NCBI GenBank assembly: GCA_014727925.1
Contig: WJMN01000027.1
Coordinates: 1-46,074, forward strand
Direction of reading: 5' to 3'
DNA: 46,074 nucleotides
From: Candidatus Micrarchaeota archaeon
Lineage (GTDB): Archaea; Micrarchaeota; Micrarchaeia; Anstonellales; Bilamarchaeaceae
The position numbers and the translations under genes are program-made. Position 1 is the stretch's first letter; every line of letters begins with the position of its first letter. The notes below the pieces were generated by a model. The model had not been told where the DNA came from, searched no databases, and saw only the letters and a program-made list of their open reading frames with translations. Of this stretch, positions 282 through 40,121 are shown one piece after another.

Positions 282-330
282 ACTGATTTTTTTGCTCCCA
301 ACTCTTTTTATATACCTAATTTACGCTCTT

Positions 331-350
331 TGCCGTATCCAATTACGGCA
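331..350. promoter_or_regulatory. Perfect 7-bp inverted repeat between divergent promoters (candidate operator)
   Basis: TGCCGTA-tccaat-TACGGCA lies between TATA-like boxes at about 305-315 and 360-370. Confidence 0.4.
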
Positions 351-414
351 CATAGAAACCTTTTTATATTCTCCCTCCCACAACAGAGTACCTACCCTCC
401 AGAGGTCATAATAT

Positions 415-9417: not shown

Positions 9418-9513
9418 CTGAGATAGATTGAGTAGATAATCTTTTATAGTTCCTCTTATATTCTCCAATTTATGTGCAATGTAGTCCTTGAAGGTACCCG
9501 TGCGGTTCTTGAT

Positions 9514-16714: not shown

Positions 16715-18622
16715 TTATTTCAGCCTTATTGCTTCAAGGTTCAGCGGAGCTCTGCTTTCTCTTCTGAGCATGGAGCCGATTCCCTTTGCAAGGTCCTCTG
16801 TTTTTCCCCAGTCTCCGTGAACTGTGAATACGCGCTCAGGGGTAGGCCGGATGTTTTTCATAAAGGCCATGAGCTGGTGCCTGTCGCTGTGGCCGGAGAA
16901 TCCTTCTACGGTTTCCACCCGCATGTTTATGTTCATTATCTGGGTTCTTCCATCGTCTCCAGTTGTCGGTATCTCCTTCATCCCTTTCTGTATCTTGTGT
17001 CCAAGTGAAAGTGGGCTCTGGTACCCCACAAACACAAGGGTGTTTTTTTCGTCTCCAGCCATGAGATCCAGGTATTCCACTGAAGGCCCGCCCGTAAGCA
17101 TTCCTGAGGGTGCAAGAATTACGCACGGCTCTCCGTCTGTTATCTCTTTCTTGTCTGTTCCTTTTGCAACCTTTATCATCGGAGATTCAAAGGGACTGTT
17201 GTTTGAGAGTATCCTCCTCTCCACATTGTCCCGCAAGTATTCAGGGTATGCGGTGTGGATTGCCGATGCCTCCAGCACCATGCCATCTATGTATACCGGA
17301 AGGTCAAATCCGCTGTTTTCCCTTCTGTAGTAATCTTCAAGCGCCAGCATTATCTCCTGGCTTCTCCCTACGGCAAACACAGGGATGAGCGTTTTTCCGC
17401 CTTTTTTGGCAGTTTCCTTGATGATGTTTACCAGTTTGTCTTCCATCTGCCTGCGGTTGGGCGTAACGTCGTTTCTCCCCCCATATGTGCTTTCAATGAA
17501 GAGTGTTTCTACTCTGGGAAAGTTTGTATTTGCCGGCTCAAACAACTTTGTATATCCGAATTTCATGTCTCCGGTATGGACGAAGTTATGCAGGCCCTCA
17601 CCTATGTGCAGGTGAATCATTGCGCTCCCTATTATGTGGCCTGCATTGTACATAGTCATTTTTATTTCCGGGGTTATGTCCACAACTTCCCCGTATTCTA
17701 CAGGTATGACCCTCCTCAACTCTGTCTGTATGTCTTTTTTTGTGTAAGGCGGCTCAACCCCCAGGGTTTTTTTTGCCAGGTTCAGGTAGTCCTTCTGGAG
17801 AAGGCCCATCAGGTCCCTTGTGGGAGAGGTGCAATAAACAGGCCCGTCATATCCGTATGCATAAAGATATGGGATGAATCCCATATGGTCCATGTGCCCA
17901 TGCGTTACCAGCACTGCGTCTAGGTCTTCTAGTGGAAATCCCAGCATGTTCAGATAGGGGTATGCCTTGCTTGGCTCACCGGTAACCGGGTTTATCCCCA
18001 CATCAATGAGAACTTTGCTGTTTGGAGTCTGGATAAGCACACATGACCTCCCCACTTCCCGGGACGCCCCAAGCAGCACCGCCCTTACCCAGTCACTTTG
18101 CGGAGCTGGCTGACATATCTTTTTTCCAACAGAAACCAGGAATTTTTTTCTTTCCTCAGCATCTGCAACAGCCGCTTTCCGCACCCCCTTAAGGGTTGAT
18201 GAAGGTATGGTCGGGCTCCTCAGCACCACCGGAGACCACCCAGTGCTTATCATTATCTCTTTTAGCACTGAGCCTCCCTTCCCTATGACCAGGCCAGGCT
18301 TTAGTGCCTCTATATTGACTTCTGAAAATTCAGGAACGAAAAATATGTTTGATATTCCTGCATCTTCTGAAACTGTTTCCTTTATTTTCTTTTTTGCCTC
18401 ATCCGGGTCGCTGAGCATAGACGGGTCCACCCTCACGCTGACTTTTTTTCTGAGGCTGCCTGCCAGTTGTTTTATAAGCTGGTCATTATCGTAAAATGCC
18501 TTTATGTTTTTCACATATATGACTATGTTGAGCCCTTCCGGCTCTACTTTTGTAACCTCGCATTCAGCAGGCATTATTTCTTCCACAATTTTCTCTATTT
18601 CTTTGTAATGCACTGTTCTCAC
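16715..18622 (-). CDS. fttA: Beta-CASP ribonuclease aCPSF1 (termination factor FttA)
   Basis: N-terminal KH domains (KPGLVIGKGG), EVGRSC, THGHMDH, AGHIIGS, ESTYG, GFSGHSD, VHG. Adjacent to psmB. Confidence 0.95.
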   Translation of the reverse strand: MRTVHYKEIEKIVEEIMPAECEVTKVEPEGLNIVIYVKNIKAFYDNDQLIKQLAGSLRKKVSVRVDPSMLSDPDEAKKKIKETVSEDAGISNIFFVPEFSEVNIEALKPGLVIGKGGSVLKEIMISTGWSPVVLRSPTIPSSTLKGVRKAAVADAEERKKFLVSVGKKICQPAPQSDWVRAVLLGASREVGRSCVLIQTPNSKVLIDVGINPVTGEPSKAYPYLNMLGFPLEDLDAVLVTHGHMDHMGFIPYLYAYGYDGPVYCTSPTRDLMGLLQKDYLNLAKKTLGVEPPYTKKDIQTELRRVIPVEYGEVVDITPEIKMTMYNAGHIIGSAMIHLHIGEGLHNFVHTGDMKFGYTKLFEPANTNFPRVETLFIESTYGGRNDVTPNRRQMEDKLVNIIKETAKKGGKTLIPVFAVGRSQEIMLALEDYYRRENSGFDLPVYIDGMVLEASAIHTAYPEYLRDNVERRILSNNSPFESPMIKVAKGTDKKEITDGEPCVILAPSGMLTGGPSVEYLDLMAGDEKNTLVFVGYQSPLSLGHKIQKGMKEIPTTGDDGRTQIMNINMRVETVEGFSGHSDRHQLMAFMKNIRPTPERVFTVHGDWGKTEDLAKGIGSMLRRESRAPLNLEAIRLK

Positions 18623-18670
18623 CTACTACTTCCGCAGTTTATAAATAAGTTTTAAAAAAATGAAAAAAAT

Positions 18671-19297
18671 TCAACAATGTTTTTCAATTTCTTTTTCAGA
18701 GAGCAGTTCTGCCCCTTTATCTGTTATCAGCATTACTGTAACTCCTTCCCCGCTCGCTGAATCCCTCTTCATTGCAGTGTTAACTGATTTTACTGCAACG
18801 CGTATTGCTTCTTCTGTTTCAAGTTCCGGCTTGTAAAGCTCCTCTATAAGCCCCATAGCTATCGGGGAACCGCTTCCAGTTGCCGTGTATTTTTCTTCTG
18901 TTGCCCCCCCGAGCATGTCCACGCTGAATACTCTTGGGGACTTGTCCACACCCCCTATGAGTATCTGCACGAAAAACGGATAAAATTTATACTGGGAGAG
19001 AATGTTTGCAAGAAGGGTTGCTGCCGCCTCAACGCCCATTTGCCTCTGGTTTTTCAGTTCATACAGTTTGATTTCAGCTCTCATCCACCTTACTAGGTTC
19101 TGGGCATCGCCCACTCCTCCTGCGAGTGTCATGGCAATCCGGTCATTTATTTTCTCTATTTTCTGGACATCCTTGCTTGCGATGTAATAGCCCATTGTTG
19201 CTCTTTTATCACTCGCCAGAACCACTCCGTTTTTGCAAACAAGCCCCACGGTGGTCGTCCCGGTCTTCTTAACCTGGTCTGCCTTTGTTTCTTCCAT
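18671..19297 (-). CDS. psmB: Proteasome beta subunit
   Basis: Propeptide followed by TG/TTTVG, DKRAT, GDAQ, TGSGS, RDSASG. Confidence 0.96.
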   Translation of the reverse strand: MEETKADQVKKTGTTTVGLVCKNGVVLASDKRATMGYYIASKDVQKIEKINDRIAMTLAGGVGDAQNLVRWMRAEIKLYELKNQRQMGVEAAATLLANILSQYKFYPFFVQILIGGVDKSPRVFSVDMLGGATEEKYTATGSGSPIAMGLIEELYKPELETEEAIRVAVKSVNTAMKRDSASGEGVTVMLITDKGAELLSEKEIEKHC

Positions 19298-19523
19298 TCA
19301 CTCACCAAAAATAGTTCTGTATCTAACTGTTTTCTAAATATTTATAAAGGGTATTGCTATTTTCCAACTACTTTTCTGAAAAATAGGTTTATGTACTCAT
19401 TGTGAATAAAAGTGTTTAAAAATGTTTCTATTGCTTCCAAAGCCCAACATTTGTGGCAATTTCTGGCCAATAGTTGCTTTTCCTTACTATATTTAAGCCT
19501 TCCGGCTATTATAATATAAACTA

Positions 19524-20984
19524 ATGAAGGGCAGGCTCATCCATCGACCTACTGCAAAGCATCGTATTGCACCCCCCAGAGTATGCAGTGCAAAAATAAA
19601 GAGGCACAGCCGCCAACTGCACCTTCCGGGATGCTCCCGAATTCTTAAGCGACCAATGCCCGATGCAATTCTTTCTCCCCATGAATCCCATTCCATAGGA
19701 AACCTCAGAAAAATACTTGATGCTAACAGCTATACTCCAAGGGCAAAGAAGTTTATTGAGAAAGCCTATGCATTTTCCGAGAATCTTTACCAGGGAAAAA
19801 GAAGGGATGACGGAACCCACACAATAACCCACCCGCTTGCAGTGGCTGTGCGCGCGGCCAAAATGCGCCTATCTGAATACGCGGTATGTGCTGCCCTACT
19901 CCACGATTCAATAGAGGATACAAACCGTACAAAAAACCAGCCAGGGCAGGTTCTCCCCGACCACATCCTAAATCTTTTTGGAGAAAACCCCCCTGCCAGA
20001 AGATGCGGGGAAGAAACCCTAAAAACCGTCCTCCTACTCACAAAACCAAAATATCTTGACCGGCCAGGAACCCCCAAAAACCTGCGCTGGATTTCCCCTG
20101 ATAACAAACAGTATTTCAGCATAAATGATGATTATCAGCAGTGCTACAAGAGAGAGAACTATTTCTATGATGAGAGGAGCCGTATTTACTATGACCGCCT
20201 TCTGAATTCAGGGAACATAGTTGCAATAGTATTGAAAGAGCTGGACAACATACACAATGCTGAAACAATGAAAGGGATTTCCCGGGAAAAAATAATGAAG
20301 AATCTCAGGACCATGGGGACCAACACCCTTCAGCACGCAGGCATATTTTTTGTTGAAAAAGATGTGCAATACATAAAGGGCCTTTTTAGGGACCTTGGAG
20401 TAACTGTGGACCTCATGCTGACCCCTGCCCGCCCCCGTTCAGAAGTCATTTCCTTTAAATTGCGGGACAGGATTGACCTGGAAACACTTGTTTCCCATCC
20501 CGACCCCCAGTATACCTATATTTCACTCTATGGTTCAATACCCGAAGTCGCCCTTATGCTGGATTATGTTGAAATTGGGCTTCCCCCCCGCCTTGGCCTG
20601 AACTACAAGGAACTTCTGAATATTTATTTCAATGGGGATTTTCTCCTGGAGGAGGGGAAGAGCGTTGTTCCATCCACTTCCCCTGTAAATGAGCACATAC
20701 TACGGGTCGGAGGCTTCCTTGACCAGAAAACCAGGAACAAGGTGCTCCGCCCTTCTGATGAGGAGTCTGGCTATTTTGAACTGCTCGGGTACGGCGGTGA
20801 AGTAGTTACCCGTGCCACCCTTCATGGAGTGAAGGAAGGCGATGTAAAATTGGGGGAACCAACAAGGGAACCTCTTAAGCAGGTTAAGCAGCAATACCAC
20901 CTCCTCAATCTGTACCTTTGTGGATTTTACCAGGACGTCCTTGTCCCAATCCTGGAAAAAATGGACATAAACAAAAGCAGCTAA
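19524..20984 (+). CDS. RelA/SpoT-type HD hydrolase domain protein with basic N-terminal tail and unknown C-terminal domain
   Basis: IEKAYAFS...GKRRDDG...ITHPLAVA, AALLHDSIEDT, LLTK and IVLKELDNIHN match the RSH hydrolase motifs. TATA-like TATTTAAG lies about 27 nt before the ATG. Confidence 0.8.
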   Translation: MKGRLIHRPTAKHRIAPPRVCSAKIKRHSRQLHLPGCSRILKRPMPDAILSPHESHSIGNLRKILDANSYTPRAKKFIEKAYAFSENLYQGKRRDDGTHTITHPLAVAVRAAKMRLSEYAVCAALLHDSIEDTNRTKNQPGQVLPDHILNLFGENPPARRCGEETLKTVLLLTKPKYLDRPGTPKNLRWISPDNKQYFSINDDYQQCYKRENYFYDERSRIYYDRLLNSGNIVAIVLKELDNIHNAETMKGISREKIMKNLRTMGTNTLQHAGIFFVEKDVQYIKGLFRDLGVTVDLMLTPARPRSEVISFKLRDRIDLETLVSHPDPQYTYISLYGSIPEVALMLDYVEIGLPPRLGLNYKELLNIYFNGDFLLEEGKSVVPSTSPVNEHILRVGGFLDQKTRNKVLRPSDEESGYFELLGYGGEVVTRATLHGVKEGDVKLGEPTREPLKQVKQQYHLLNLYLCGFYQDVLVPILEKMDINKSS

Positions 20985-21033
20985 CTGCCTGCCCCGGGCA
21001 ATTATTTAAAACCTCCCTATTATTATCCTATCA

Positions 21034-21651
21034 ATGGAATCCAGTGTTTCCCAGTTTAATTTTTTAGGACTCAAGCTTGATGTATTCAGGGGTGTCTATG
21101 CCCCGCAGGAAGACTCCATTCTCCTAGCCAAGCACACCCATTCAATCTGCGGAAACATACTTGAGCTGGGTACTGGATGTGGCATTTCCGCCCTTTCAAA
21201 TGCTTCGCGCAATCCGAAAAATTATGTTCTTGGCCTTGACATCAATCCAAAAGCAGTGAAGAATGCAGAGTACAATGCCAGCCACAATAAAATCAGGAAC
21301 GCCCGTTTTATCCAGTCAGACCTTTTTTCCGTAGTCCCCACTCTCCGCTTTGATGCAATCCTTTTCAATCCGCCCTATCTTCCAGAAAGCCACCGGCCCC
21401 AGGGAAAGCCCTCTCCGGTAGATGCCGCGCTTTACAGCGGCAGGGATGGCCGCCTTCATACTGATTCTTTCCTCCATCACTTGGATGATTACCTTCTTCC
21501 CGGGGGCAAGGCCTTTCTTGTCCAGAGCACCCACACAGACATCCCCCGTACCCTGGAACTTTCCCATTCCCTTGGCTTTTCATCAGAAATAGTGGAAGAG
21601 CAATCTTTCTTTTTTGAGAAAATCGCCCTGCTCAAACTGTTTAAAGAATGA
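21034..21651 (+). CDS. HemK2/Mtq2-family N5-glutamine methyltransferase
   Basis: VYAPQEDSILL, LELGTGCG, DINP, SDLF, FNPPYLP. Confidence 0.9.
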   Translation: MESSVSQFNFLGLKLDVFRGVYAPQEDSILLAKHTHSICGNILELGTGCGISALSNASRNPKNYVLGLDINPKAVKNAEYNASHNKIRNARFIQSDLFSVVPTLRFDAILFNPPYLPESHRPQGKPSPVDAALYSGRDGRLHTDSFLHHLDDYLLPGGKAFLVQSTHTDIPRTLELSHSLGFSSEIVEEQSFFFEKIALLKLFKE

Positions 21652-22807
21652 TGTAAACTTTTCCCTTTTTGCTTACAGTCATCGCGGTTTCCCCCGACCA
21701 GTCAAAGGTTTTTGAGTATGCTTTTTCCAGCTTTAATTTCATTCCCGGCCTTATGGGGTTGCCCCTCTGGTTGAAAAGGTAAATCAGCCCCTCGCTCCCG
21801 TCCGGGTCAGCCACCACAATACGGGTAAACACATCCTTTTTCGTCTTTGTCCTCTGATAATCCTTGTGCTCAAGCGATTTCACATAAAGCGCTCCCGTGT
21901 TTATGTTTTTCATTCCGCTCTGTATCTCAGTAATGTCTGTTATGTTCAGTTCCTTATAGCGTTTTTTCGCCACATCAAATGCAAGCTTTATCTGGTCCTC
22001 AGTGTTTTTGGTCAGCTTTTTCATTGCCTTTTTCATCACCTTTTCGTCTCCTTTGCTGGCCATCATAGTATCAAATGCAAACTTGAATACAGTTCCCCCC
22101 GGGGACATATCCGCATTTTCCTTTGCCCATTCTTCCTCCGGGCTGGGTCCATCCTCAACTGCGCTCTCATCCTCCAGTGAGCTTTTTTCAACTTCCTTGA
22201 ATACTTCGTCTGGCTTGAGCTCCTTGGTTGAAACAAGCCCCAGCTCTTCTGCAAGGGATTTCTGCCGTGGTTCAGATACTTCTGTTTCTTTTTCCCCACT
22301 GCCAGCAACAACATCCAGGTAGCCCTCCAGCATCTCCTCAACTACTTTCTTGTTTTCCTTGCTTATTTCCCTTTCTCCCCCCTCTTTCTCCTCCATGGCC
22401 TTCATGTACATTTTCTCAAGGGTAGGCATCATCCTCTTCTTCATCTTTTTTGCCCGCTCCTTGCCAAGCTTTTCCTCAAACATTTTCTCTATCGGCTCAA
22501 GCATTTTTTCCCGCGCGGTGGTCCGGGGCCTTTCCTGCTCCTCCTTCTCCTCTTTTCTCTCCCCGTTTTCCCCCTTGGAAAAAACATCTGCAAAGGACAT
22601 CATTTCCGGTTCTTTTCCCTTTGCCTCATCAAGCAGCTTACGGGCCGTCTCCTGAACGTTCTTGTCCTTGTCATAAGTAAGCTCAACAAGCGCAAACATT
22701 GCGCCTGGTGCATCGTATTTTGCAAGCTCTACTGCAGCCTGCTTCCTGACCTTTGGGTCCGAATCAAAGGTTAATGAGATAAGTTCATGCAGCCCCATCT
22801 TCTTCAT
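21641..22807 (-). CDS. HEAT-repeat protein with charged linker and C-terminal SSB/RPA-like OB fold
   Basis: HEAT repeats DSDPKVRKQAAVEL and DKDKNVQETA. OB-like C-terminus ITEIQSGMKNIN...VVADPDG...IYLF...IRPGMKLKLEKAY. Confidence 0.7.
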   Translation of the reverse strand: MKKMGLHELISLTFDSDPKVRKQAAVELAKYDAPGAMFALVELTYDKDKNVQETARKLLDEAKGKEPEMMSFADVFSKGENGERKEEKEEQERPRTTAREKMLEPIEKMFEEKLGKERAKKMKKRMMPTLEKMYMKAMEEKEGGEREISKENKKVVEEMLEGYLDVVAGSGEKETEVSEPRQKSLAEELGLVSTKELKPDEVFKEVEKSSLEDESAVEDGPSPEEEWAKENADMSPGGTVFKFAFDTMMASKGDEKVMKKAMKKLTKNTEDQIKLAFDVAKKRYKELNITDITEIQSGMKNINTGALYVKSLEHKDYQRTKTKKDVFTRIVVADPDGSEGLIYLFNQRGNPIRPGMKLKLEKAYSKTFDWSGETAMTVSKKGKVYIIL

Positions 22808-23549
22808 GTTCTCTACCTTCCAGTTCTTCAAGCACAACCCTCAGCACATTCATCACCGAGCGTCCCTCCTTCTCAGTGGGGTTTGCCCGACCGATTATCC
22901 TCCTGAATGCCACCTCGCACCTTTTTGGATTGCGGAACGTATATCTCCCTACCAAACTTTTAAACATTTGGTTAAGCACTTCCTTTTCCTTTCCATGAAG
23001 CCTCTCTTCCCTCGTTTTTCTCTTTTTCCCAAGCCCCAGCGCATAGATTGCAACCGCCACTGCATGGGAGAGGTTCATAACAGGGTATTCGCTGTTTGTT
23101 TCTATATTAACAAGGTAGTCACATTCTCCGATTTCCCCCTCATCCAGCCCGATTCCTTCTCTCCCGAACACCAGGGCCAGGTTGCCCTTGTATCCCCCGC
23201 GCATTTCCCTGAATTTTTTTAGTGGCACCACTGTCCTTATGCTTCCCCGGTGCCGCCTTATTATTCCTGTGAACCCAACTGCAGCATCACAGTCTTCCAC
23301 CGCTTCCCTGAGGCTCCCGAACCTCTTTGAGCTTTCTAGCACCTCTCTTGCATGCTTTGAATACATTATTGCTGTTTTACCCGCAGGGCAGGCTGGTTCC
23401 ACAACCCTCAGTTCATCCAGCCCAAAGTTTTTCATTACCCTTGCGACCATCCCAAGATTGGTTTCGTATTCCGGGCCTACAAGCACAATAATGCTCCTGC
23501 CCCTTCCTCCGGGCTTTGCCTTCTTTTTTGTTTTTTTCTGAAGTGCCAC
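22785..23549 (-). CDS. trmJ: TrmJ-family SPOUT tRNA methyltransferase
   Basis: NLGMVARVMKNFG, LVFGREGIGL, YPVMNLSHAV. Confidence 0.9.
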   Translation of the reverse strand: MALQKKTKKKAKPGGRGRSIIVLVGPEYETNLGMVARVMKNFGLDELRVVEPACPAGKTAIMYSKHAREVLESSKRFGSLREAVEDCDAAVGFTGIIRRHRGSIRTVVPLKKFREMRGGYKGNLALVFGREGIGLDEGEIGECDYLVNIETNSEYPVMNLSHAVAVAIYALGLGKKRKTREERLHGKEKEVLNQMFKSLVGRYTFRNPKRCEVAFRRIIGRANPTEKEGRSVMNVLRVVLEELEGREHEEDGAA

Positions 23550-32466: not shown

Positions 32467-33612
32467 TCAGGGCTGCATCCACTCTATCTCGTAATATTCG
32501 TATTTGCTTCCGGGCAATTCAATCCTCTTAATCAAGTAGTAAGTAACTGAGCTTTCCCTATCCGCAATTGCCACAAGCAAATCCAGCCCTCTTCCCAGGC
32601 AGGTTCTGAGTGAGGCAGCTAGCTCTTCTCCCCCAAGATACTCATCCTCCGAAAGCGAGAGCATCAGGAATGAGGGGTTTCCTGTTTTTGGGGATTCTAC
32701 ATCCTGCCCCTTCCTGTGGTAGAGGGCAAAATCCACCTCCCCCTTCTTTACTTTTCCCCTTCCCGGAATTGCAAGTATAAACGTTTTCTTAACTGAATGC
32801 GCTACCCTTATTGCCCTGGCCCATTCTGAAATAAGAAGCGAGCTTTTCCTTGGAAAAACGTGCAGCACGTGCTTTGAATGCGTCCATTCCCTGCCCTTTC
32901 CAGGCCCTGCTCCAGGAGGGTAAATCCTGAAATGCGTACCAAACTTGAAACCTGTTTTTACAACATACCCCGCCTCTCTCCATTCCCGGTAAACATTGTT
33001 AAGATCCTCAAAATATTCAATCCTCCCGCATGCCACTTTCTTGATTTTCCCTGCATCGCAGTTTTCCAGCAGCAGTTTTTTCTTGTCTATCAACAGGAGG
33101 GTCTCAAATACGTCCAGTTTTGAGATGCTTCCTCTGTGCGCGGCCTTGTAAGTGCCCATCTGGCCCAGCCAGTATTCCTGATAAAGTTTCTCCCCCGCTT
33201 CCTTATCATCAATGGTACATATCAGGTCATCAAGGAAAAACATTCCCCCTGCCGTTTGCATTTCCAGCCCAATTTCCCCCCGCATATACCTATGTAAGGA
33301 ATTCTCCCCCTTGCTTCCTTTCTCCCCCTTTTCCGGCTTGATGAACAGCCCCCGGTCCCTCCAGTCCTTGTAAGTCATGTATCTCGCAAGGAGCTTTTTT
33401 CCAGAAAATTTCCCTGCCAGTTCATTGAATCCAATCACCATTCCCTCAGAATCTATGCATTCTGCCCCCCTCACATCAATAAGGTAAAGGGCCTCCTCCG
33501 GCTCCAGCACTATCCCTTCTTTTCTTTTTTCTCCATACTGCCCCTTTACGAGCGCAGTAATTGTTTGTGCATCTCCGGCAACTGCCTGCTTTCCGTCCCA
33601 AGAAAGTTTCAT
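32467..33612 (-). CDS. endA: tRNA splicing endonuclease, three-unit epsilon (ARMAN/Micrarchaeota) type
   Basis: Partial N-unit (EEALYL...YKDWRDRG), full catalytic unit (GFKFGTHFRIY, THSKH, VAHSVKK giving the Y/H/K triad) with a GTYK insertion loop, and a C-terminal structural unit; 381 aa. Confidence 0.9.
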   Translation of the reverse strand: MKLSWDGKQAVAGDAQTITALVKGQYGEKRKEGIVLEPEEALYLIDVRGAECIDSEGMVIGFNELAGKFSGKKLLARYMTYKDWRDRGLFIKPEKGEKGSKGENSLHRYMRGEIGLEMQTAGGMFFLDDLICTIDDKEAGEKLYQEYWLGQMGTYKAAHRGSISKLDVFETLLLIDKKKLLLENCDAGKIKKVACGRIEYFEDLNNVYREWREAGYVVKTGFKFGTHFRIYPPGAGPGKGREWTHSKHVLHVFPRKSSLLISEWARAIRVAHSVKKTFILAIPGRGKVKKGEVDFALYHRKGQDVESPKTGNPSFLMLSLSEDEYLGGEELAASLRTCLGRGLDLLVAIADRESSVTYYLIKRIELPGSKYEYYEIEWMQP

Positions 33613-33662
33613 AACTGCTCTTTACCTGCAAGAGTTTAAATTATTCCCGCCCAAACAATCTC

Positions 33663-34046
33663 ATGGAATCAGAGCGTGCCCCTGATGTTCAGTTCATGCT
33701 TGAGGAAATACTTGAGCAGCTTCAGCTTGAGCATGTTATAAATTCCAGGATTATATGCATGCGGAGCCGCGGTGCAAAGGTAGCTGCCTATGCCCGCATA
33801 TGGTCTCTCCCCGCAATCTGGAGGAATGCCCTGGAAATCAACCCCTTTTACATAATAGAGGTGGTAAGCGAGGAGTACGACCATCTCCCAGAAGAGGAAA
33901 AAAAGAAAATCCTAATCCACGAGCTCCTTCACATCCCAAAGAAATTCACCGGGGGACTAGTACCCCACAAGAACCGCGGAAGAAGAATAGATGACCGTTT
34001 TGTTGATGAGCTTTATTCCCGCTACCGTTCTGCAAGAAAGGTATGA
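33663..34046 (+). CDS. Putative metallopeptidase (COG4900-like)
   Basis: YARIW, YIIEV, LIHELLHIP (HExxH), PH. Confidence 0.8.
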   Translation: MESERAPDVQFMLEEILEQLQLEHVINSRIICMRSRGAKVAAYARIWSLPAIWRNALEINPFYIIEVVSEEYDHLPEEEKKKILIHELLHIPKKFTGGLVPHKNRGRRIDDRFVDELYSRYRSARKV

Positions 34047-34052
34047 ACCTGC

Positions 34053-34529
34053 CTATCCAAATCCTGCACGGTAAGCTTTTACGAAGTTTATTTCCTCCTG
34101 CCCAACAAATGCATAAAAAAGAGCCTTTCTCATTTTCCCAGAAACCTGCAAATCCTCAAGCAGTGGGGGCTGTTCATCCATAGGGAGCACTTTAAGCAGG
34201 AATTCTGTGCGGTCCTGCCCAACTCTTATTCCCTTTTTGTAAATCCTGAGAAAGCTTCCCGGCCCGAAACGGACAATCCTGCCGGATTCCCGCAGCTTCT
34301 CTAACACAAGGAATTTTTCCCTTGCCAGAGAGTCTTCATGCAGGGCAATCCCAATGAGTTCACTGCTGCTTTTTCCTGTTGATATTTTTCCTTTTTCCTG
34401 GAAGTAGGCAGCTTCAATAAGGGGCATTTCCAGCACCCCGTCGTTTTCTCTTCCTGCACCGAGCAGCCCCAGTTTTTCAACCATCTCCGGGTTGTCCTCT
34501 AGGTACCTACCCTGTTCTATTTTCCCCAT
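34053..34529 (-). CDS. Non-catalytic tRNA-splicing-endonuclease-like (beta/pseudo-beta) subunit
   Basis: IEAAYF, LEKLRESGRIVR, FLRIYKKG, GKMRKALFYAFV; the catalytic His is absent. Confidence 0.7.
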   Translation of the reverse strand: MGKIEQGRYLEDNPEMVEKLGLLGAGRENDGVLEMPLIEAAYFQEKGKISTGKSSSELIGIALHEDSLAREKFLVLEKLRESGRIVRFGPGSFLRIYKKGIRVGQDRTEFLLKVLPMDEQPPLLEDLQVSGKMRKALFYAFVGQEEINFVKAYRAGFG

Positions 34530-35041: not shown

Positions 35042-35422
35042 ATGATAATATATACAGATGGAGCGTGTTCAGGCAATCCCGGCCCAATGGGAGTGGGGGC
35101 GGTTGTTTACAAGGGAGGGAAAATCCTCATGGAAATAAGCGAGAACCACGGGGACGGAACCAACAATATTGCAGAATACCTTGCAGTAAGGCGGGGTCTT
35201 GAGGAGGCGATCACTCTTGGTGCGGACGCAGTGGAGGTCCGCACAGATAGCCGCCTGGTGGTGCGCCAGCTTAGCGGCAAGTTCCGCATCAAAAAGCCCC
35301 ATCTTCGGGAGCTCAAAGCAGAGATAGAGGAGCTTTCCGAGGGCCTGGATGTGCGGTATACCTGGATTGAGAGGGAAAAGAACAATCTTGCAGACAAGCT
35401 TGCAAAAGATGCAATAAGGTGA
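35042..35422 (+). CDS. rnhA: Ribonuclease HI
   Basis: YTDGACSGNPGP, TNNIAEY, TDSRLV, WIEREKNNLADKLA. Confidence 0.93.
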   Translation: MIIYTDGACSGNPGPMGVGAVVYKGGKILMEISENHGDGTNNIAEYLAVRRGLEEAITLGADAVEVRTDSRLVVRQLSGKFRIKKPHLRELKAEIEELSEGLDVRYTWIEREKNNLADKLAKDAIR

Positions 35423-35423
35423 G

Positions 35424-36548
35424 GTGGTGAGAAGGGATCCTGGCACTTATTTCACTTTTGAGGCTTCCAAGCCCCTCCCCTTCCACCGCTGGTTTTACTA
35501 CAAGGAAGCATTTTCCCCTCCGGTTGTTGATTATTTTCTTGAATATTTTTCTTCCACCGGCCCTGTTTTTGACCCCTTTTCCGGAATAGGCACAACTCCA
35601 CTTTCCTGCAAAGCGTCCGGCTTGAAAAGCACAGCAATAGATATATCCCCCCTAGCTGTTTTTGCTTCACGCACAAAATGCGCAGATTATTCAGAAGAGG
35701 ATATTGGGGCTGCAAAAAATGAGCTCAAGGCCTTTTTCAAGAACCGGCAGGAACCCAGTTTCAGCTGGGATTTTGAGCTTTTCTCACCCCGCAAATTCTT
35801 CTCCAAGCGCAATTACAATGACATCTGCTTTATCCGGGAAAAAATTGAACAGATGGAAAACCAGAAAGTAGGCTCCCTGTTTCTCCTGGCCCTCCTCTCC
35901 ATACTCCCCCAGTCCGGCTTCTTCATAAAAGACGGCGGAGTTCTGCGCCTTGAAAAATCCAAGAGCGCCATCCCCGCAAAACATGCGTTCAAGAAAAAAG
36001 TAAAGCAGATGCTGGGAGATATAGAAATCAGCCCCATCTCCGGCCCTGAGCCGGAAATATTCCTTGCAGATGCCCGCAGCTTTTCTCCCCCTCCCCATGA
36101 ACTATTCATAACCTCCCCCCCATACCTCAACAACATAGACTATTCCAAGGTTTATGGATTAGAGCTTTCCCTGCTTTCTATGGAGAAGAATGCATCCCTC
36201 CAGATGCGCAGGGAGGCTCTGCGCTCATTCATCACAAAAGACTCAAGCAGGTCCGAGCCCCCGGAAGAAGCGGGTGAAATCGCCCACAGGATTCCGGTTG
36301 CAGGCCAGTATTTCTCAGACATGGAGAAAGTGCTCCAAAATCTCTACAAAAGTACAGAAAAAGGTGGTGCCCTGATTGTGGGCAATGCAGTTCTCCAGGG
36401 AGAGCACATAGAAGTGGACAGAATTCTTGGGGAAATAGGGAAAAGAATCGGGTTCGAATATGAAATTCCTCTCTGGATGGAAAGGATTGCGGACGTAAAG
36501 CCGGCAAAATTAAAAGTGCGGGAAAGTGCAGTAGTATTCAGGAAATAG
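35424..36548 (+). CDS. Orphan amino (N4C-like) DNA methyltransferase
   Basis: HRWFYYKEAFS, motif I DPFSGIGTT, motif IV TSPPY. Confidence 0.85.
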   Translation: MVRRDPGTYFTFEASKPLPFHRWFYYKEAFSPPVVDYFLEYFSSTGPVFDPFSGIGTTPLSCKASGLKSTAIDISPLAVFASRTKCADYSEEDIGAAKNELKAFFKNRQEPSFSWDFELFSPRKFFSKRNYNDICFIREKIEQMENQKVGSLFLLALLSILPQSGFFIKDGGVLRLEKSKSAIPAKHAFKKKVKQMLGDIEISPISGPEPEIFLADARSFSPPPHELFITSPPYLNNIDYSKVYGLELSLLSMEKNASLQMRREALRSFITKDSSRSEPPEEAGEIAHRIPVAGQYFSDMEKVLQNLYKSTEKGGALIVGNAVLQGEHIEVDRILGEIGKRIGFEYEIPLWMERIADVKPAKLKVRESAVVFRK

Positions 36549-38381
36549 CTACTTTTTCCTGCCGTTTTTCCTCCTCTCCACTGACTTAAGGTACTTTATT
36601 CTCGCCCTCAGCATTTCAAGGGCTTCAGGAGTGGTGATTTTTCCAATCAGTGCAGTACATGTTGGCCGGTTAATCCCGGTGCTTTCTTTACCCCCCAGCT
36701 CTACAAACACATGCGAGGGGGCCCGGTCAAATATTGCAAGGGGGTTTCCCTCCTTATCCTTTGCTGTTGCATATTCTTCAAAACCAACAAAGTGGTGCTC
36801 TCTTCCCTCTTTGTATTCTATAAGGGCAATGACTCCAGCAACACATTCACCGGGCCGGGTTATTACTGCTTGTTTTTTTGAGATTTCCCTCCTTCCCTTT
36901 CTCCTCTCCACAACTTCAACCCTTGCTACCCTTTCCTTCCTGCCATTTTCCTCCAAACCAGTCCAGCTGTTTCTGGTTATGGATGCTTCTACATTGTTTG
37001 CAAGTTCTTCTATCCTTCGTGACATTGCTTCTACAATTGCATCTGTAATCACATTCCCTACTTTCTTACCCCTAGAAAGCCTTCCTTTTGTGCATTCTTC
37101 CTGCAGCTCCCTGGTCCTTACCTGTATCTCTACCGGAATTTCCCTCTCTTCCCCCTTTTCCCCAACCAGCATCTTTATCTTGAGGTGGGGTGCCCTGTAA
37201 CCTGTTCTTCTTTTTCCGTATTTAAGCTCTTCAAGCTTTATTTTGCCCCTATATGCATTTCCAAGGTCCATTGCAAGGGCGCTTGCCGCCACCAAAGCAT
37301 CCTTGCTCTGCGGCTCCCTGGGGTTTTTCTTTGTTTTATCCACAACAACGGTTATCCCAAGAATGTCAGTAATGTGTTCCAGGCCAAACTTTTCCTCCCC
37401 CGATTTTCTTTTTTCCTTTATTTTCCGGAACATTCTTGAGGAGGATTTTACCCTTGAGCATTCCTCTGGGTCAATTGTCTGTGACTCAAGGCTGAGTTTC
37501 CATGAATATCTTTTTTCAGTTCTCCTAAGCGACCCGTGTATACTCCTCCTGCCCCCAAGAAGTATTTTCTGGGCCCTTTCTGCAAACGGGAGAATTTCCG
37601 CCCTGTACTCCTGACATTTTTTGTATAGCTCCCTGTCATTTTCCATGCCCTTGTAGTTGCCCAATTCCAATATAGTTTCAGTTGCCACTCGTCCTATCTC
37701 ACCGATTGTTTCTGCAGTCATTCCCAGGGTTTCTGCAATAGGATAATGGACCATCTCCAGGGCCTTTCCTGTTTCCAGCTTCTCTTCCTTTCCAAGCTCC
37801 CCCCTGATTCCAAAATATTTTACATGCATCTGCCTGGCAACCAGCACGGGCACAGGGAATTCCCCATCCTGCAGGGGCTCAGCATAGAGCACCCCATATT
37901 CTTTTTCCCCTTCACCTGCCCTAAGTTTGTCCAGTTCTTCAATCATCTGGTATTTTTCCCACAGGGATTTTGTCCTTTCCCTGTATCCCAGAATAGTGTT
38001 TTGTCTCGTGTCTGCCATCTCTTCCCCATGCCTCGCATAAATCAGCGCATTTCTGATTTCTTCATCCCCAAAAAGCCTCTGGATTCTTTTATCAAGTTCT
38101 TCTAGGAATCTGTCTGCACCATTTTTCCCAAGGCATACCATAGCAGATAGGGCGCACGCAGCCAGCCCCTCTCGTATTCCCCTGGGGCCATATCCCCCAG
38201 GCTCAAACAGGCCCCTCATCTCCTCTATCATCCCTTCTGTTTTTTCTTTTCTTTCGCCTGCAATTTTATCCAGTGCATTGCGGTATGCCTTCATTAGCCT
38301 CCCAAATGCCTTCTCCTGCTGCTTTACTAGTGACTTTGGGGGACGGGATGGTCGCGTTGCCCGTTTTCTCCTGGGTGGCAT
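36549..38381 (-). CDS. Divergent long RelA/SpoT homologue: degenerate HD plus (p)ppGpp-synthetase-like domain plus unknown or TGS-like C-terminus
   Basis: HYPIAETLGM (YAPLA.RLG-like), RVK...RK, ITDILGI, TGYRAPH, PVEIQVRT. The N-half has remnants LMKAY, LAACALSAMV (HD lost) and IQRLFGDE. Confidence 0.75.
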   Translation of the reverse strand: MPPRRKRATRPSRPPKSLVKQQEKAFGRLMKAYRNALDKIAGERKEKTEGMIEEMRGLFEPGGYGPRGIREGLAACALSAMVCLGKNGADRFLEELDKRIQRLFGDEEIRNALIYARHGEEMADTRQNTILGYRERTKSLWEKYQMIEELDKLRAGEGEKEYGVLYAEPLQDGEFPVPVLVARQMHVKYFGIRGELGKEEKLETGKALEMVHYPIAETLGMTAETIGEIGRVATETILELGNYKGMENDRELYKKCQEYRAEILPFAERAQKILLGGRRSIHGSLRRTEKRYSWKLSLESQTIDPEECSRVKSSSRMFRKIKEKRKSGEEKFGLEHITDILGITVVVDKTKKNPREPQSKDALVAASALAMDLGNAYRGKIKLEELKYGKRRTGYRAPHLKIKMLVGEKGEEREIPVEIQVRTRELQEECTKGRLSRGKKVGNVITDAIVEAMSRRIEELANNVEASITRNSWTGLEENGRKERVARVEVVERRKGRREISKKQAVITRPGECVAGVIALIEYKEGREHHFVGFEEYATAKDKEGNPLAIFDRAPSHVFVELGGKESTGINRPTCTALIGKITTPEALEMLRARIKYLKSVERRKNGRKK

Positions 38382-38437
38382 AAATTATAATTACGTGTAA
38401 AATAGTTTATATAGCTTTTCCTCCCCATAATTTTCCT

Positions 38438-39328
38438 GTGAAAACCTACATTACCGGAGCCACTGGCCGCCTCGGCCATTCTGTCCTTGAGCAAATAAAC
38501 GCAATCCCGCTTGTCCGTAAAAAATCCGGGCTCGCAAAGGAAGTGCTTACTGATTTCTCAGAGCATTCCCTGAAAAAAATCCTGAAGGGCACAACCCACA
38601 TCGTCCACCTCGCAGGCTCAGTTAAAACCTGGGACAGGAATGCACTTGAGCAGGCAAACGTGGAGCTTACCCGCTGCATCGTGAATGCTTCCCCTGAAAA
38701 CTGCCACATAGTATTTGCCAGCTCAATTTCTGTATATGGAAAAAAGCTCGCGGAAATCCCTGCAGATGAAGAAACCCCCACAAGCCCGGATTCAGATTAC
38801 GCCCGCACCAAGCTGGAAGCCGAGCAATTAGTAAAGCAAAAGAAAAAGCACACAATACTCCGCATTGGCACGCTCTATGGCCCCCAGTTCCAAGACTATT
38901 TCAATGTGCTCCGCATGATTGAGAAGGGAAAGATGAAAATCTTCGGAGATGGCTCCAACCGCATCTCCTTTATCCACTCAGAGGATTGCGCAGCCGTTTT
39001 CCCAAAGGCCCTCAAGAAAACAGGCACGTATGTTCTTGCCGGCCCTCCCGCAACCCAGCGCCAGATTTACACTTATGCAGCACGCGCACTTGGCGTGATC
39101 CCCCCTAATTCCACCCTCCCGGTTTGGGCAGGAATGCTCCTTGCACGCATCCAGGAGCTCAGGGGCAGCCCCAGGCTCACCCGCGAACACATCTCAATTC
39201 TTTCCGCAGACCGGGTTTTCGACTATTCAAAAGCCCAGCAGGAGCTCGGCTTCTCCCCCCGCCCCATAAAACGGGGGATAGAGGAGATGGTTTCCGAATA
39301 TTTGGGAAGGAAAACCCAAAACAAATAG
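38438..39328 (+). CDS. NAD-dependent epimerase/dehydratase (extended SDR)
   Basis: ITGATGRLG, HLAG, SSISVYG, YARTK, LYGP. Confidence 0.9.
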   Translation: MKTYITGATGRLGHSVLEQINAIPLVRKKSGLAKEVLTDFSEHSLKKILKGTTHIVHLAGSVKTWDRNALEQANVELTRCIVNASPENCHIVFASSISVYGKKLAEIPADEETPTSPDSDYARTKLEAEQLVKQKKKHTILRIGTLYGPQFQDYFNVLRMIEKGKMKIFGDGSNRISFIHSEDCAAVFPKALKKTGTYVLAGPPATQRQIYTYAARALGVIPPNSTLPVWAGMLLARIQELRGSPRLTREHISILSADRVFDYSKAQQELGFSPRPIKRGIEEMVSEYLGRKTQNK

Positions 39329-39368
39329 TTATAAAGGCAATTTACGCTAATTTAGAGGGAGGTTTACC

Positions 39369-40121
39369 ATGAAAGTAGAAGATTATATTCACGAAAAGCT
39401 TGAAGAGCACAAGGCACTGCTCTTCTCGGTCCTAGACCCCCTAGACTACCCCTCGCTTGAGGATGCAATAAAAACAGCCAAGAACATGGATGAAGGAGGC
39501 GCAGACATCCTCTTAATCGGAGGAAGCACCGGGGTGCAGGGCGAAATGCTCGACCAGCTAACAAATCAGGTAAAGGAAAGCGTGGATGTTCCGGTAGTTT
39601 TCTTCCCCGGAAATATTGGAACTGTTTCCAAGTACGGTGATGCTGTCTACTTTATGTCCCTTCTCAATTCCCGCAACCCCTATTGGATTACTGGGGCCCA
39701 GACCCTTGCCGCCCCCATGGTAAAGCAATATGGAATTGAGCCTCTTCCCGTAGGCTACATGGTTGTTGAGCCCGGAGGCACAGTGGGCTGGGTAGGAGAG
39801 GCAAACAAGATACCCCGCAACAAGCCCAAGCTCGCAGCCGCAACCGCCCTGGCCGCCCAGTACATGGGCTTCAGGCTAGTAGTTACTGATGCAGGAAGCA
39901 ACCCCAAGGAGGGCCACATCCCCCTGGAGATGGTTAGTGCAGTCTCCTCCACAATCGATGTTCCCTACATAGTTGCAGGGGGAATTCGCAATCCTGAAGA
40001 GGCAAAATCCGTAATCAAAGCAGGAGCAGACATTGTCCAGGTGGGCACTTCCTTTGAGAAGAATGGCGGAGCAGATGCAGTAAAGAAATTCGTAAGCGCA
40101 GTGAGGGAGGGCAAAAAATGA
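39369..40121 (+). CDS. Geranylgeranylglyceryl phosphate synthase
   Basis: LDP, IGGSTG, FPG, MSLLNSRNPYWITGAQ, GYMVVEPG, GGGIR-like AGGIR. Confidence 0.93.
   Translation: MKVEDYIHEKLEEHKALLFSVLDPLDYPSLEDAIKTAKNMDEGGADILLIGGSTGVQGEMLDQLTNQVKESVDVPVVFFPGNIGTVSKYGDAVYFMSLLNSRNPYWITGAQTLAAPMVKQYGIEPLPVGYMVVEPGGTVGWVGEANKIPRNKPKLAAATALAAQYMGFRLVVTDAGSNPKEGHIPLEMVSAVSSTIDVPYIVAGGIRNPEEAKSVIKAGADIVQVGTSFEKNGGADAVKKFVSAVREGKK

Follow-up and report, generated by a model that had tools for sequence, protein, structure and literature searches.

A gene at 36549..38381 on the minus strand of the window, by which we mean the whole 46,074-nucleotide stretch of Micrarchaeota DNA that was analysed, encodes a protein of 610 residues, and we show here that it is a highly diverged and shortened descendant of the long RSH enzymes, in terms of both homology and domain architecture. 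Judging from its motifs, the most likely reading, which we hold to be somewhat more probable than all others taken together, is that of an active pyrophosphokinase with synthetase function only, the hydrolase being supplied in trans. The RelA-like enzyme is in this case predicted to use ATP as pyrophosphate donor and a purine nucleotide as acceptor, yielding a (p)ppGpp-type alarmone. Regulation would fall to the pseudo-HD and TGS domains, and degradation would take place in trans by a stand-alone HD_4 hydrolase encoded at 19524..20984.

In the accessible text of the standard RSH superfamily survey, archaea are without long RSHs (PMC3153485), and in the part at hand a report on other DPANN phyla does not list Micrarchaeota for RelA/SpoT (PMC8407392). 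We found no paper on RSHs of Micrarchaeota; long RSHs of archaea may be included in the taxonomic tables that Jimmy et al. (PNAS 2020) give as a supplement. As will be seen below, this one DPANN phylum holds a whole radiation of genes derived from long RSHs, which comprises canonical Rel, truncated proteins with a degenerate HD domain, a synthetase and a TGS domain (HD*-Syn-TGS; present in many genomes), and a hyper-diverged branch of about 600 residues, often accompanied by stand-alone HD_4 hydrolases. These are concrete enzymes with which to ask whether archaea make and use alarmones, and they constitute a natural experiment on a Rel enzyme working without ribosome-binding domains. The weight of the present gene in this respect is limited, because its more canonical relatives in Micrarchaeota are easier first targets; its altered donor-site residues and odd tempo of evolution, on the other hand, could point to a new product or to a part in conflict.

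The open reading frame is a real gene under purifying selection, since it has a dN/dS of 0.13 and a gene order that is kept in all six genus relatives examined. Relative to the closest orthologue (L003) the value is 0.134, and in two close pairs it is 0.134 and 0.157; the shadow ORFs in the L003 comparison give mostly about 0.8-5.8, with a few at 0.17-0.31. Within one RSH type, purifying selection (dN/dS 0.13-0.16) is slightly weaker than on the flanking genes. The gene, whose stop codon is at 36549..36551, is monocistronic, with a convergent methyltransferase-like gene on one side and a divergent epimerase gene on the other, both conserved across the genus. Housekeeping genes surround it, and the contig carries tRNA-splicing endonuclease, GGGP synthase, FttA, proteasome and SRP54. 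The DPANN archaeal setting assumed in an earlier, sequence-only reading of this DNA is borne out by the genome size of 1.0 Mb, the archaeal neighbours, and a protein from the same genus labelled Candidatus Micrarchaeia. A tRNA scan and an Rfam search over the window gave no match.

The AlphaFold model of the protein has a pLDDT of 84.6 and a pTM of 0.70. Its best Foldseek matches are full-length Rel, SpoT and RelA, with E-values of 8e-9 to 2e-7 over 591-607 aligned columns, and catalytic fragments of Rel match the model with Z 14.6-19.5. The identity to Rel-type chains in the structural alignments is 10-17%. At the profile level, hhalign connects the family with the canonical long RSHs at 96% (E 2.6e-9) over 316 columns, from the hinge to the helix that follows the TGS domain. 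The Micrarchaeota-wide relatives are linked to both sides, namely to the 600-residue family at 99.9% (E 4e-31, 396 columns) and to the canonical RSHs at 99.9% (E 3e-35). The strings quoted in the sequence-only reading are all present and in the order given there: LMKAY at residues 29-33, LAACALSAMV at 73-82, IQRLFGDE at 100-107, VLVARQMH at 179-186, HYPIAETLGM at 212-221, RVKSSSRMFRK at 310-320, DILGIT at 339-344, GYRAPH at 394-399 and EIQVRT at 418-423.

The synthetase domain, a RelA_SpoT nucleotidyltransferase, occupies approximately residues 296-440 (37062..37496, minus strand) and is supported by Pfam, hhalign, PDB profile matches and the motif table. Residues 309-433 score 35 bits (E 1.8e-8) with the Pfam RelA_SpoT model (PF04607), whose gathering score is 27. 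This is the only Pfam match of the protein, and 12 of the 13 family members match the same model. Both a RelA_SpoT match and a strong long-RSH fold match, on which the earlier assignment had been made to depend, are thus found. In hhalign the region aligns with its canonical counterpart at 92% (E 5.5e-7), and the PDB entries found with the family profile include RelQ, RelP, YjbM and YwaC (E 8e-5 to 7e-4) as well as Rel_Seq (E 0.016). A single-sequence phmmer search of the PDB gave no match, and an NCBIfam search returned only noise (E 0.027 or worse). The best single-domain synthetase in the structural comparison is 5ded_E (Z 12.8, rmsd 2.9, 148 residues aligned). The synthetase domain is also the best conserved domain of the protein, with 34-39% identity (the four closest relatives apart) as compared to 5-31% for the pseudo-HD domain and the linker, and it contains 10 of the 17 non-Met positions that are invariant in the family.

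We take R-x-K...K to be Syn1, the Asp Syn2, G-Y..H Syn3 and E-x-Q-x-R Syn4, and the conserved residues presumably have the roles (ATP phosphate binding, Mg2+, base stacking) that are given by the Rel_Seq and RelQ structures. In Syn1, R310 is kept in 12 of the 13 members and K312 and K320 in all of them. Also retained throughout are D339 of Syn2, G394, Y395 and H399 of Syn3, and Q420 and R422 of Syn4; E418 is present in 11 members and replaced by Asp in the other two. The Syn1 Ser, on the other hand, is replaced in all 13 members (Arg in four, Gly in nine), the Arg of Syn2 (D-x-x-G-x-R) is Thr in all 13, and Syn5, A-E..A-A-H-W-x-Y-K, is remodelled, such that Glu, Trp and Tyr are lost and the His is kept in one subfamily only. 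The motif table thus confirms what had been read from the DNA alone, i.e. that the Syn2 Asp and the Syn4 Glu, Gln and Arg are kept and that the Syn1 Ser, the Syn2 Arg and the downstream MH..AE are altered. The invariant Syn2 Thr and the loss of the Syn1 Ser, together with the remodelling of Syn5, lead us to infer that a donor pocket or a regulatory pocket is altered, and the product may therefore not be canonical (p)ppGpp. Losses of this kind could either abolish catalysis or redirect it.

We now consider the N-terminal half. It begins with a basic tail (residues 1-20, 38322..38381, minus strand; net charge +8), of which residues 1-13 are predicted to be disordered (pLDDT below 50). This is followed by an all-helical HD-like, or pseudo-hydrolase, domain assigned by its fold match to Rel (approximately residues 21-200, 37782..38321), and by a hinge with central helices, placed by motif alignment (approximately residues 201-295, 37497..37781), which includes V-H-Y-P-I-A-E-T-L-G-M. 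The overlay on Rel that had been suggested as a check succeeds: VIA-align places the model on the HD and synthetase fragment of B. subtilis Rel (8acu_B) with Z 19.5, in an alignment that covers 305 of 331 residues and pairs model 22..464 with chain 20..347. The hinge is matched to the canonical motif I-Y-x-P-[IL]-A-H-[KR]-L, and although its match in hhalign is weak when taken alone (E 0.047), it falls at the expected place.

It is important to point out that the N-terminal domain has no such counterpart in sequence. Pfam gives no match to HD_4 or HD in the protein at E-values up to 10, and hhalign of residues 1-205 against canonical HD domains or whole RSHs yields probabilities of 0.1-0.6% (0.1% for canonical HD). 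Altogether, the model supports a domain that is HD-like by fold and not by sequence. Since no HD sequence can be detected, the equivalences of individual residues to hydrolase motifs are unproven. The dead hydrolase scaffold proposed earlier is supported as a fold (Z 19.5), and the four motif equivalences proposed with it are not confirmed by sequence (hhalign 0.1%, no HD_4 or HD match). The missing hydrolase signature does not bar the protein from the long RSHs, because those of the RelA type also lack it.

The C-terminal region starts with a linker (36936..37061, minus strand), identified from the secondary structure and pLDDT of the model, which consists of a long helix at residues 447-471 and a low-confidence loop at 471-482. 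The next part, approximately residues 483-570 (36672..36935), folds in the model of the isolated domain as a TGS-like beta-grasp, and residues 571-610 (36552..36671) constitute a basic helix with a net charge of +9, modelled as helical at 585-609. Modelled alone, the C-terminal domain has a pLDDT of 80.9, and a VIA-align comparison with 48,161 chains gives the TGS domain of Rel with its following helix as the best match (6htq_x, Z 9.5, rmsd 2.4, 97 aligned). The second and third TGS-region matches in the same set are 6yxa_A (Z 8.9) and SpoT 7qpr_A (Z 6.7), while generic ubiquitin-like (beta-grasp) folds reach Z 5.4 or less. The Pfam TGS model has no match in the protein, Foldseek with the domain alone finds nothing at E <= 0.001 (RelA 5iqr_8 appears at E 0.065 among ubiquitin-like folds), and hhalign of the C-terminus gives E 0.0025-0.014. 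The domain can thus be described as TGS-like on the basis of its modelled fold. Of the Pfam profiles that had been proposed as a check, RelA_SpoT matches with 35 bits, and HD_4 and TGS do not match.

The basic helix pairs with the first post-TGS helix of Rel (chain residues up to 489-496), also in the profile alignment, and the alignment to canonical RSHs ends at canonical column 491 of 710. The protein stops about 40 residues past the TGS domain, and the zinc-finger with its conserved Cys residues and the ACT/RRM domain are absent. Of the long-RSH layout claimed earlier, the order HD-like, hinge, synthetase, TGS holds by fold, and from the hinge onwards also by profile-profile alignment, but the layout is not complete.

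Among the closest known systems is bacterial bifunctional Rel (B. subtilis 8acu, 6yxa and 6htq; T. thermophilus 6s2u), in which HD fold, hinge, synthetase, TGS domain and helix follow in the same order, with Z 19.5 and 18.1 for the catalytic half and Z 9.5 and 8.9 for the TGS domain plus helix. The core synthetase residues are shared. In contrast to bacterial Rel, the protein has no hydrolase signature, zinc-finger or ACT/RRM, its N-terminal half exceeds that of Rel by about 100 residues, and the Syn1 Ser, the Syn2 Arg and the AE..AHW.YK motif are changed. In E. coli RelA, too, a degenerate HD domain is followed by a conserved synthetase and a TGS domain, and residues 25..501 of its structure (5iqr_8) match residues 22..600 of the model with Z 15.2. 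RelA, however, keeps the ribosome-binding zinc-finger and RRM as well as all canonical Syn motifs.

RelA shares its labour with SpoT, and a similar division could exist here between the present protein and a stand-alone HD_4 protein, with the difference that SpoT is itself a long RSH. The candidate partner is a 486-residue hydrolase at 19524..20984 on the plus strand (Pfam HD_4, 35.9 bits vs 27.2), located 15.6 kb from the RSH gene and not in one operon with it. The catalytic motifs H-P-L-A, L-L-H-D-x-I-E-D and D-N-x-H-N of SpoT are kept in this protein and in seven aligned relatives, and it has an unrelated C-terminal extension. The gene is syntenic among relatives, and it occurs together with the RSH gene in the same six of seven other genomes of the genus. 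In a sample of 401 genomes, 49 have both genes, 56 only RelA_SpoT, 28 only HD_4 and 268 neither, and the corresponding odds ratio of 8.4 overstates the link because related genomes are not independent. An HD_4 match is absent from 56 of the 105 RelA_SpoT-positive genomes of the sample.

The family comprises 13 members, which are 46-80% identical within the closest subgroup and 24-31% outside it. Among 1.84 billion proteins there are 11 representatives, all of the 600-residue type except one fragment, and no close bacterial homologue. RelA_SpoT itself is found in 105 of 401 sampled Micrarchaeota genomes, including 57 of 75 in the family of the source organism, and the statement that archaeal RSHs are merely sporadic does not apply to this phylum. 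A fully canonical Rel of about 650 residues was found in one lineage (one family). The 600-residue family forms a clade (97/96) beside L011, one of the Micrarchaeota-wide truncated RSHs (loci L010-L022, about 450-560 residues), and we have thereby shown from the sequences that it descends from that wider clade. Both groups have the truncated plan HD*-Syn-TGS-helix and the hinge P-x-A-[DE], the canonical form being P-[IL]-A-[HN]. The wider group is more canonical (RelA_SpoT 26-71 bits vs 35 in the present protein), keeping the Syn1 Ser in nine of 12 cases, the Syn2 Arg in five of 12 and H..YK mostly, and one of its members, L015, still passes HD_4. The 600-residue family is longer and more derived. 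Some of the Micrarchaeota-wide relatives bear the IMG label '(p)ppGpp synthase/HD superfamily hydrolase'.

A different reading, which we consider possible but distinctly less probable, is that of a conflict-system effector, i.e. a pyrophosphokinase whose specificity has switched, in the manner of CapRel, FaRel2, FaRel or Tas1, to adenine nucleotides or the 3' ends of tRNA. It would be directed against viruses or serve in the relations between symbiont and host, and the HD_4 protein would be its antidote or reset enzyme. The tempo of evolution speaks for it, and the fast evolution of the gene resembles that of conflict systems. In five of six genus relatives the RSH is 26-27% identical while the flanks are 63-96% identical, and the divergence affects the RSH gene alone, without reaching beyond its ORF. 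The ratio of RSH to flank ML distances leaps from about 2 in close pairs to 4.6-9.2 at intermediate species distances, incongruently with the flanks, and the syntenic genes of one genus fall into two deep subfamilies. The HD_4 gene likewise diverges fast and erratically (1.5-5.8 times its flanks). A uniformly fast clock was also considered as the origin of the RSH divergence, and it is ruled out by the non-monotonic ratio (about 2 vs 4.6-9.2). A housekeeping stress regulator would not normally evolve at such a tempo, which counts against the synthetase-only reading.

Also in line with an effector are the donor-pocket residues altered in every family member, and the strongly basic character of the protein, whose pI of 9.55 and charged tails are compatible with RNA binding. 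CapRel is a tRNA pyrophosphokinase and Tas1 a (p)ppApp synthetase, such that diverged RSH synthetases can change their substrate. SAH-type hydrolases are described, in the accessible text of one study, as antitoxins of toxic small synthetases (10.1101/575399). On the other side, the gene is monocistronic among housekeeping genes, no adjacent antitoxin gene or bicistronic toxin-antitoxin layout was found at the RSH locus, the hydrolase gene is distant, and selection within one type is purifying. ToxSAS/CapRel (7ztb, 9erv) and Tas1 (6ox6) share the synthetase fold but have neither HD-fold nor TGS domains, and the C-terminal domain here matches TGS and not the CapRel antitoxin domain. The model is nearer to Rel (Z 19.5) and to (p)ppGpp-making small synthetases (RelQ, 12.8) than to CapRel (9.4) or Tas1 (8.3), although fold likeness does not fix the substrate and the closeness to Rel reflects ancestry more than substrate. 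An unlikely further variant is that the RSH and HD_4 proteins are a rapidly co-diversifying writer/eraser pair, employed in viral conflict or in dealings of Micrarchaeota with their archaeal host instead of a classical stringent response. The synthetase, with a re-tooled donor pocket (the Thr in place of Arg, the missing Ser), would then make a non-canonical product or pyrophosphorylate tRNA or other RNA, and the locus would keep its place in the chromosome while strongly diverged alleles were swapped there.

Another option, to which we give rather little credence, is a pseudoenzyme, namely a Rel-derived scaffold that has lost both activities and is kept as a regulatory or RNA/ribosome-binding protein. 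The hydrolase site is indeed undetectable, three canonical synthetase motif features are gone from the entire family of 13, the protein as a whole diverges very fast, and (p)ppGpp production has so far been demonstrated in no archaeon according to the accessible portion of one paper (PMC8646023). However, even at 24-31% identity the catalytic motifs keep their residues invariant (Syn1 Arg and Lys, Syn2 Asp, G-Y..H and E/D-x-Q-x-R), a pattern that makes little sense unless the protein is a catalyst or, at the minimum, binds nucleotides. The better conservation of the synthetase domain and the retention, in the same genomes, of a partner hydrolase that by its motifs appears active also argue against this option.

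An artefact, i.e. bacterial contamination, mis-assembly or recent bacterial transfer, might be suspected as RSHs are typically bacterial and the RelA/SpoT of other DPANN phyla are predicted, in the accessible part of PMC8407392, to be of bacterial origin, but it is effectively refuted by the archaeal housekeeping genes on the contig, the genome contamination of 0.16%, the synteny in six of six genus relatives, the even GC content along the whole window, and the 11 representatives, none of which is a close bacterial homologue.

Finally, a TATA-like element, TATATAAA, can be read on the minus strand at 38406..38413, 25-32 nt upstream of the ATG. By its position, TATATAAA is a candidate archaeal promoter, from which the 610-residue protein would be expressed as a leaderless transcript.

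The best-supported reading of the 610-aa protein, whose ORF lies at 36549..38381 on the minus strand of the window, is that of a Rel-derived enzyme that would act as a synthetase-only pyrophosphokinase. It is a new and strongly diverged form of an established enzyme family, whose signalling role in archaea is putative. All motif strings quoted by the sequence-only reading are found in this ORF in the order it gave, confirming the observation; the interpretation is also supported, with three corrections (a truncated architecture, unproven equivalences of the hydrolase motifs and RSHs that are not sporadic in this phylum). In Pfam, the protein matches a single domain, RelA_SpoT (35 bits, gathering score 27, residues 309-433), with no match to HD_4, HD or TGS even with E up to 10, and a search of NCBIfam gave nothing useful. 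The family that it forms with its relatives of ca 600 aa is tiny: four relatives were found among 5.8 billion clusters, and HMMER, run exhaustively on 1.84 billion proteins, yielded 11 representatives, ten of which have 584-642 aa and align end to end, the remaining one being a 314-aa fragment. RelA_SpoT is matched by 12 of the 13 aligned members. Against the PDB, the family profile finds the small alarmone synthetases RelQ, RelP, YjbM and YwaC at E 8e-5 to 7e-4 and Rel_Seq at E 0.016, with all matches confined to the synthetase region. The public annotation of the nearest homologue is 'hypothetical protein', and that of one family member 'ppGpp synthetase/RelA/SpoT-type nucleotidyltranferase'. 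An 87% identical homologue (P0003, ENA, 413 aa) stops short after the G-Y-R-A-P motif, its last ca 14 residues being unrelated; it is probably a contig-end or assembly artefact and not a natural short form.

The AlphaFold2 model of the protein, based on the 13-sequence alignment, is confident (pLDDT 84.6, pTM 0.70), and its top PDB matches in Foldseek are full-length long RSHs, namely B. subtilis Rel (6yxa, E 8e-9, 599 aligned columns), SpoT (7qpr, E 9e-8, 607 columns) and ribosome-bound RelA (5iqr, E 2e-7, 591 columns). In VIA-align, residues 22..464 of the model align to residues 20..347 of the Rel HD+Syn fragment 8acu_B (Z 19.5, 305 of 331), and T. thermophilus Rel 6s2u gives Z 18.1 (306 aligned). 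The corresponding values are Z 12.8 (148 aligned) for 5ded_E, the best single-domain synthetase, Z 9.4 (196) for CapRel 7ztb_B and Z 8.3 (143) for Tas1 6ox6_A. Relative to the single-domain synthetase, Rel aligns over ca 150 more residues; the helical N-terminal half of the protein can thus be superposed on the HD domain. Since the C-terminus was barely tested by the whole-model search, residues 440-610 were folded alone (14-sequence alignment, pLDDT 80.9) and compared with 48,161 chains in an unbiased VIA-align search. For this fragment Foldseek gave no match with E ≤ 0.001, RelA 5iqr_8 standing at E 0.065 among ubiquitin-like folds. In the VIA-align search, three long RSHs rank at the top: B. 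subtilis Rel 6htq_x (Z 9.5, rmsd 2.4, 97 aligned, chain 391-489), 6yxa_A (Z 8.9, rmsd 3.2, 107 aligned, chain 388-496) and SpoT 7qpr_A (Z 6.7, rmsd 4.5, 105 aligned, chain 367-476), with generic ubiquitin-like folds at Z ≤ 5.4. The C-terminus is thus the TGS domain and the first post-TGS helix of Rel. The protein ends after this helix and has neither the zinc-finger nor the ACT/RRM domains seen in long RSHs. Its homology and architecture are established by fold and profile alignment; the long-RSH layout proposed from the sequence holds as a domain plan, but in truncated form.

The profile comparisons were made with hhalign against an alignment of canonical long RSHs, consisting of three Micrarchaeota Rel proteins and E. 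coli SpoT and RelA. The family aligns to it over 316 colinear columns, from the hinge to the post-TGS helix (96%, E 2.6e-9). By domain, the synthetase reaches 92% probability (E 5.5e-7), and the hinge (E 0.047) and the C-terminus (E 0.0025-0.014) fall at the right positions. The N-terminal 205 residues do not resemble the HD domain in hhalign (probability 0.1%), and for this reason the four 'dead hydrolase' motif equivalences suggested earlier, plausible by position, are unproven. Truncated RSHs found Micrarchaeota-wide (L010-L022, 450-560 aa), which are more canonical than the family, provide a strong bridge to canonical RSHs. The family aligns to them over 396 columns (99.9%, E 4e-31), extending back to family position 141, and they in turn align to canonical RSHs over 327 columns (99.9%, E 3e-35). 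One of them, L015, still passes HD_4 (28.7 bits, cut-off 27.2), and among the matches to their profile are ordinary bacterial proteins with the layout HD_4+RelA_SpoT+TGS+ACT (E 1e-46 to 1e-25).

In the proposed mechanism, the pseudo-HD and TGS domains would regulate the synthetase, and a hydrolase encoded elsewhere would balance its product. Labour would thus be divided between synthetase and hydrolase proteins as in RelA/SpoT, but, unlike that pair, the 610-aa protein is without ribosome-binding domains. The sole HD_4 match of the genome lies inside the window, a 486-aa ORF at 19524..20984 (+) with 35.9 bits (cut-off 27.2). We infer the activity and product of the 610-aa protein, and likewise its partnership with this HD_4 hydrolase. 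Aligned with five genus orthologues (that of G321 being left out), two proteins of other families, canonical Rel, SpoT and RelA, the 486-aa protein matches SpoT exactly at H-P-L-A, L-L-H-D-x-I-E-D, the F-G..V helix and K-x-x-D-N-x-H-N, unlike the dead HD of E. coli RelA. It also has a conserved insertion of ca 30 residues past the L-T-K-P-K helix and a C-terminal extension of ca 240 residues without Pfam family, and it belongs to a Micrarchaeota-wide family (e.g. L031, L034). The six genus genomes that have the RSH gene also have the HD_4 gene, and neither was seen in the seventh (G070). Among 401 sampled genomes of the phylum, 77 have HD_4; both genes are found in 49, RelA_SpoT only in 56, HD_4 only in 28 and neither in 268, an odds ratio of 8.4 among genomes that are related and not independent, with some matches sharing one ORF.

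The RSH gene is surrounded by archaeal housekeeping genes (two tRNA-splicing endonuclease genes, RNase H, GGGP synthase (PcrB), PyrE and PyrF), with CTP synthase, FttA, a proteasome subunit, SRP54 and geranylgeranyl reductase more distant in the window. The element TATATAAA lies 25-32 nt upstream of the RSH ATG, a placement that would fit a leaderless archaeal transcript. A 374-aa protein (35424..36548, +), with only a sub-threshold N6_N4 DNA-methylase match (23.9 bits vs 26.7), starts 1 nt past the end of the RNase H ORF, and its stop directly abuts the RSH stop codon with a spacer of 0; both arrangements are kept in the genus. The two tRNA-intron endonuclease genes (32467..34529) encode one protein of 381 aa, in which the N- and C-terminal endonuclease domains are both present, and one of 158 aa that has the catalytic domain alone, and a 127-aa gene between them matches 'putative phage metallopeptidase' (80 bits). 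Two further ORFs, of 778 aa (9472..11808, +) and 398 aa (21641..22837, -; genus identity 57-93%), are without Pfam family at E 1e-5.

All six genus relatives have the same gene order (RNase H, methyltransferase-like gene, RSH, epimerase, PcrB), and their flanks are 63-96% identical to those in the window as far as the ORF borders. For the RSH itself, identity is 80% with one relative and 26-27% with the remaining five. It diverges in every domain; beyond the four closest relatives, identity is 34-39% in the synthetase and 5-31% in the pseudo-HD and linker. Comparison of close pairs shows purifying selection on the gene, with dN/dS of 0.134 for the window and its closest orthologue (L003) and 0.157 for L007 and L008 (flanking genes 0.036-0.109). 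The RSH/flank ML-distance ratio rises from ca 2 in the two closest pairs to 4.6-9.2 when distances are intermediate, and the order of RSH distances is incongruent with that of the flanks (flank 0.65 and RSH 1.40 for G082-G184; 0.31 and 2.72 for G000-G258). In the tree, which left out two rows identical to loci and whose long-branch warnings concern outgroups, the 600-aa proteins form one clade (97/96) with two subfamilies (100/99, 86/98), and the syntenic genes of the window's single genus fall in both. The HD_4 gene, syntenic in the genus, is also fast (33-45% identity vs 57-88% for the flanks, ML-distance ratio 1.5-5.8). This tempo is not accounted for by a simple fast clock, but it is by acceleration in episodes, or by deeply divergent alleles being exchanged at a fixed locus. 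Comparing window 35042..40121 with L003 and L006, and 16715..22837 with L039 and L037, we found that, on the left side of the RSH gene and in the surroundings of the HD_4 gene, the window is clearly nearer to G129 than to G258 (e.g. 90% vs 80%, 97% vs 88%), and about equally similar to both at the epimerase (84% vs 83%) and PcrB (96% vs 95%) on the right. This difference hints at a recombination breakpoint at or near the RSH gene.

Of the 17 invariant non-Met positions among the 13 family members, 10 are in the synthetase domain. In the joint alignment with canonical enzymes, the Syn1 Arg is kept in 12/13 and both Syn1 Lys, the Syn2 Asp, G-Y..H and the Syn4 Gln and Arg in 13/13; the Syn4 Glu is kept in 11, with Asp in the other two. 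The functional roles usually ascribed to Syn residues come from structural work on Rel_Seq and RelQ. At the place of the Syn1 Ser, 4 members have Arg and 9 have Gly; Thr stands for the Syn2 Arg throughout the 13, and the A-E..A-A-H-W-x-Y-K stretch is changed. The Micrarchaeota relatives are intermediate (Syn1 Ser kept in 9/12, Syn2 Arg in 5/12), and most of them have in common with the family the hinge variant P-x-A-[DE] (canonical P-[IL]-A-[HN]), which fits common descent. The altered donor pocket and the tempo of RSH evolution favour the main rival explanation, a conflict-related enzyme with a changed substrate, but its setting among housekeeping genes, the purifying selection and the lack of any antitoxin gene next to it speak against this. 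That the protein is a pseudoenzyme is less probable, since it is the catalytic residues that stay invariant. Contamination can in practice be dismissed. GC content is even over the whole window, the genome (1.0 Mb, 59 contigs) has 88% completeness and 0.16% contamination, and a genus-mate orthologue is 100% identical over aligned residues to a protein labelled Candidatus Micrarchaeia at NCBI.

In the sample of the phylum, the full-length 600-aa type is found only in the window's genus, in six of the seven other genomes. RelA_SpoT genes as such occur in 105 of the 401 sampled genomes (103 of these above the Pfam cut-off), among them 57 of the 75 of the window's own family, so that RSHs, earlier taken to be only sporadic in archaea, are common in this phylum. 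Parts of Atkinson et al. 2011 (PMC3153485) describe long RSHs as absent from archaea; Li et al. 2021 (PMC8407392), in the sections concerned, report RelA/SpoT annotated in four other DPANN phyla, with predicted bacterial origin, and Micrarchaeota is not among the phyla given there. Our literature search, which did not extend to the supplementary tables of Jimmy et al., found no published work on Micrarchaeota RSHs. Several Micrarchaeota genomes have ORFs of ca 350-370 aa with strong RelA_SpoT matches (57-68 bits, profile positions 1-99/101; e.g. G257:C100, G303:C5, G028:C2, G165:C28, G225:C15, G333:C67), which may be small alarmone synthetases. One Micrarchaeota family, f20, has fully canonical Rel proteins of ca 650 aa that would be bifunctional, with HD_4 (E 1e-44) and RelA_SpoT (E 1e-40) united in a single ORF (L023-L028, in G273, G093, G304, G167, G051 and G391). 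TGS, Cys-rich and ACT-like regions are discernible in them by eye. Among archaeal proteins, they would be the simplest to assay for (p)ppGpp.
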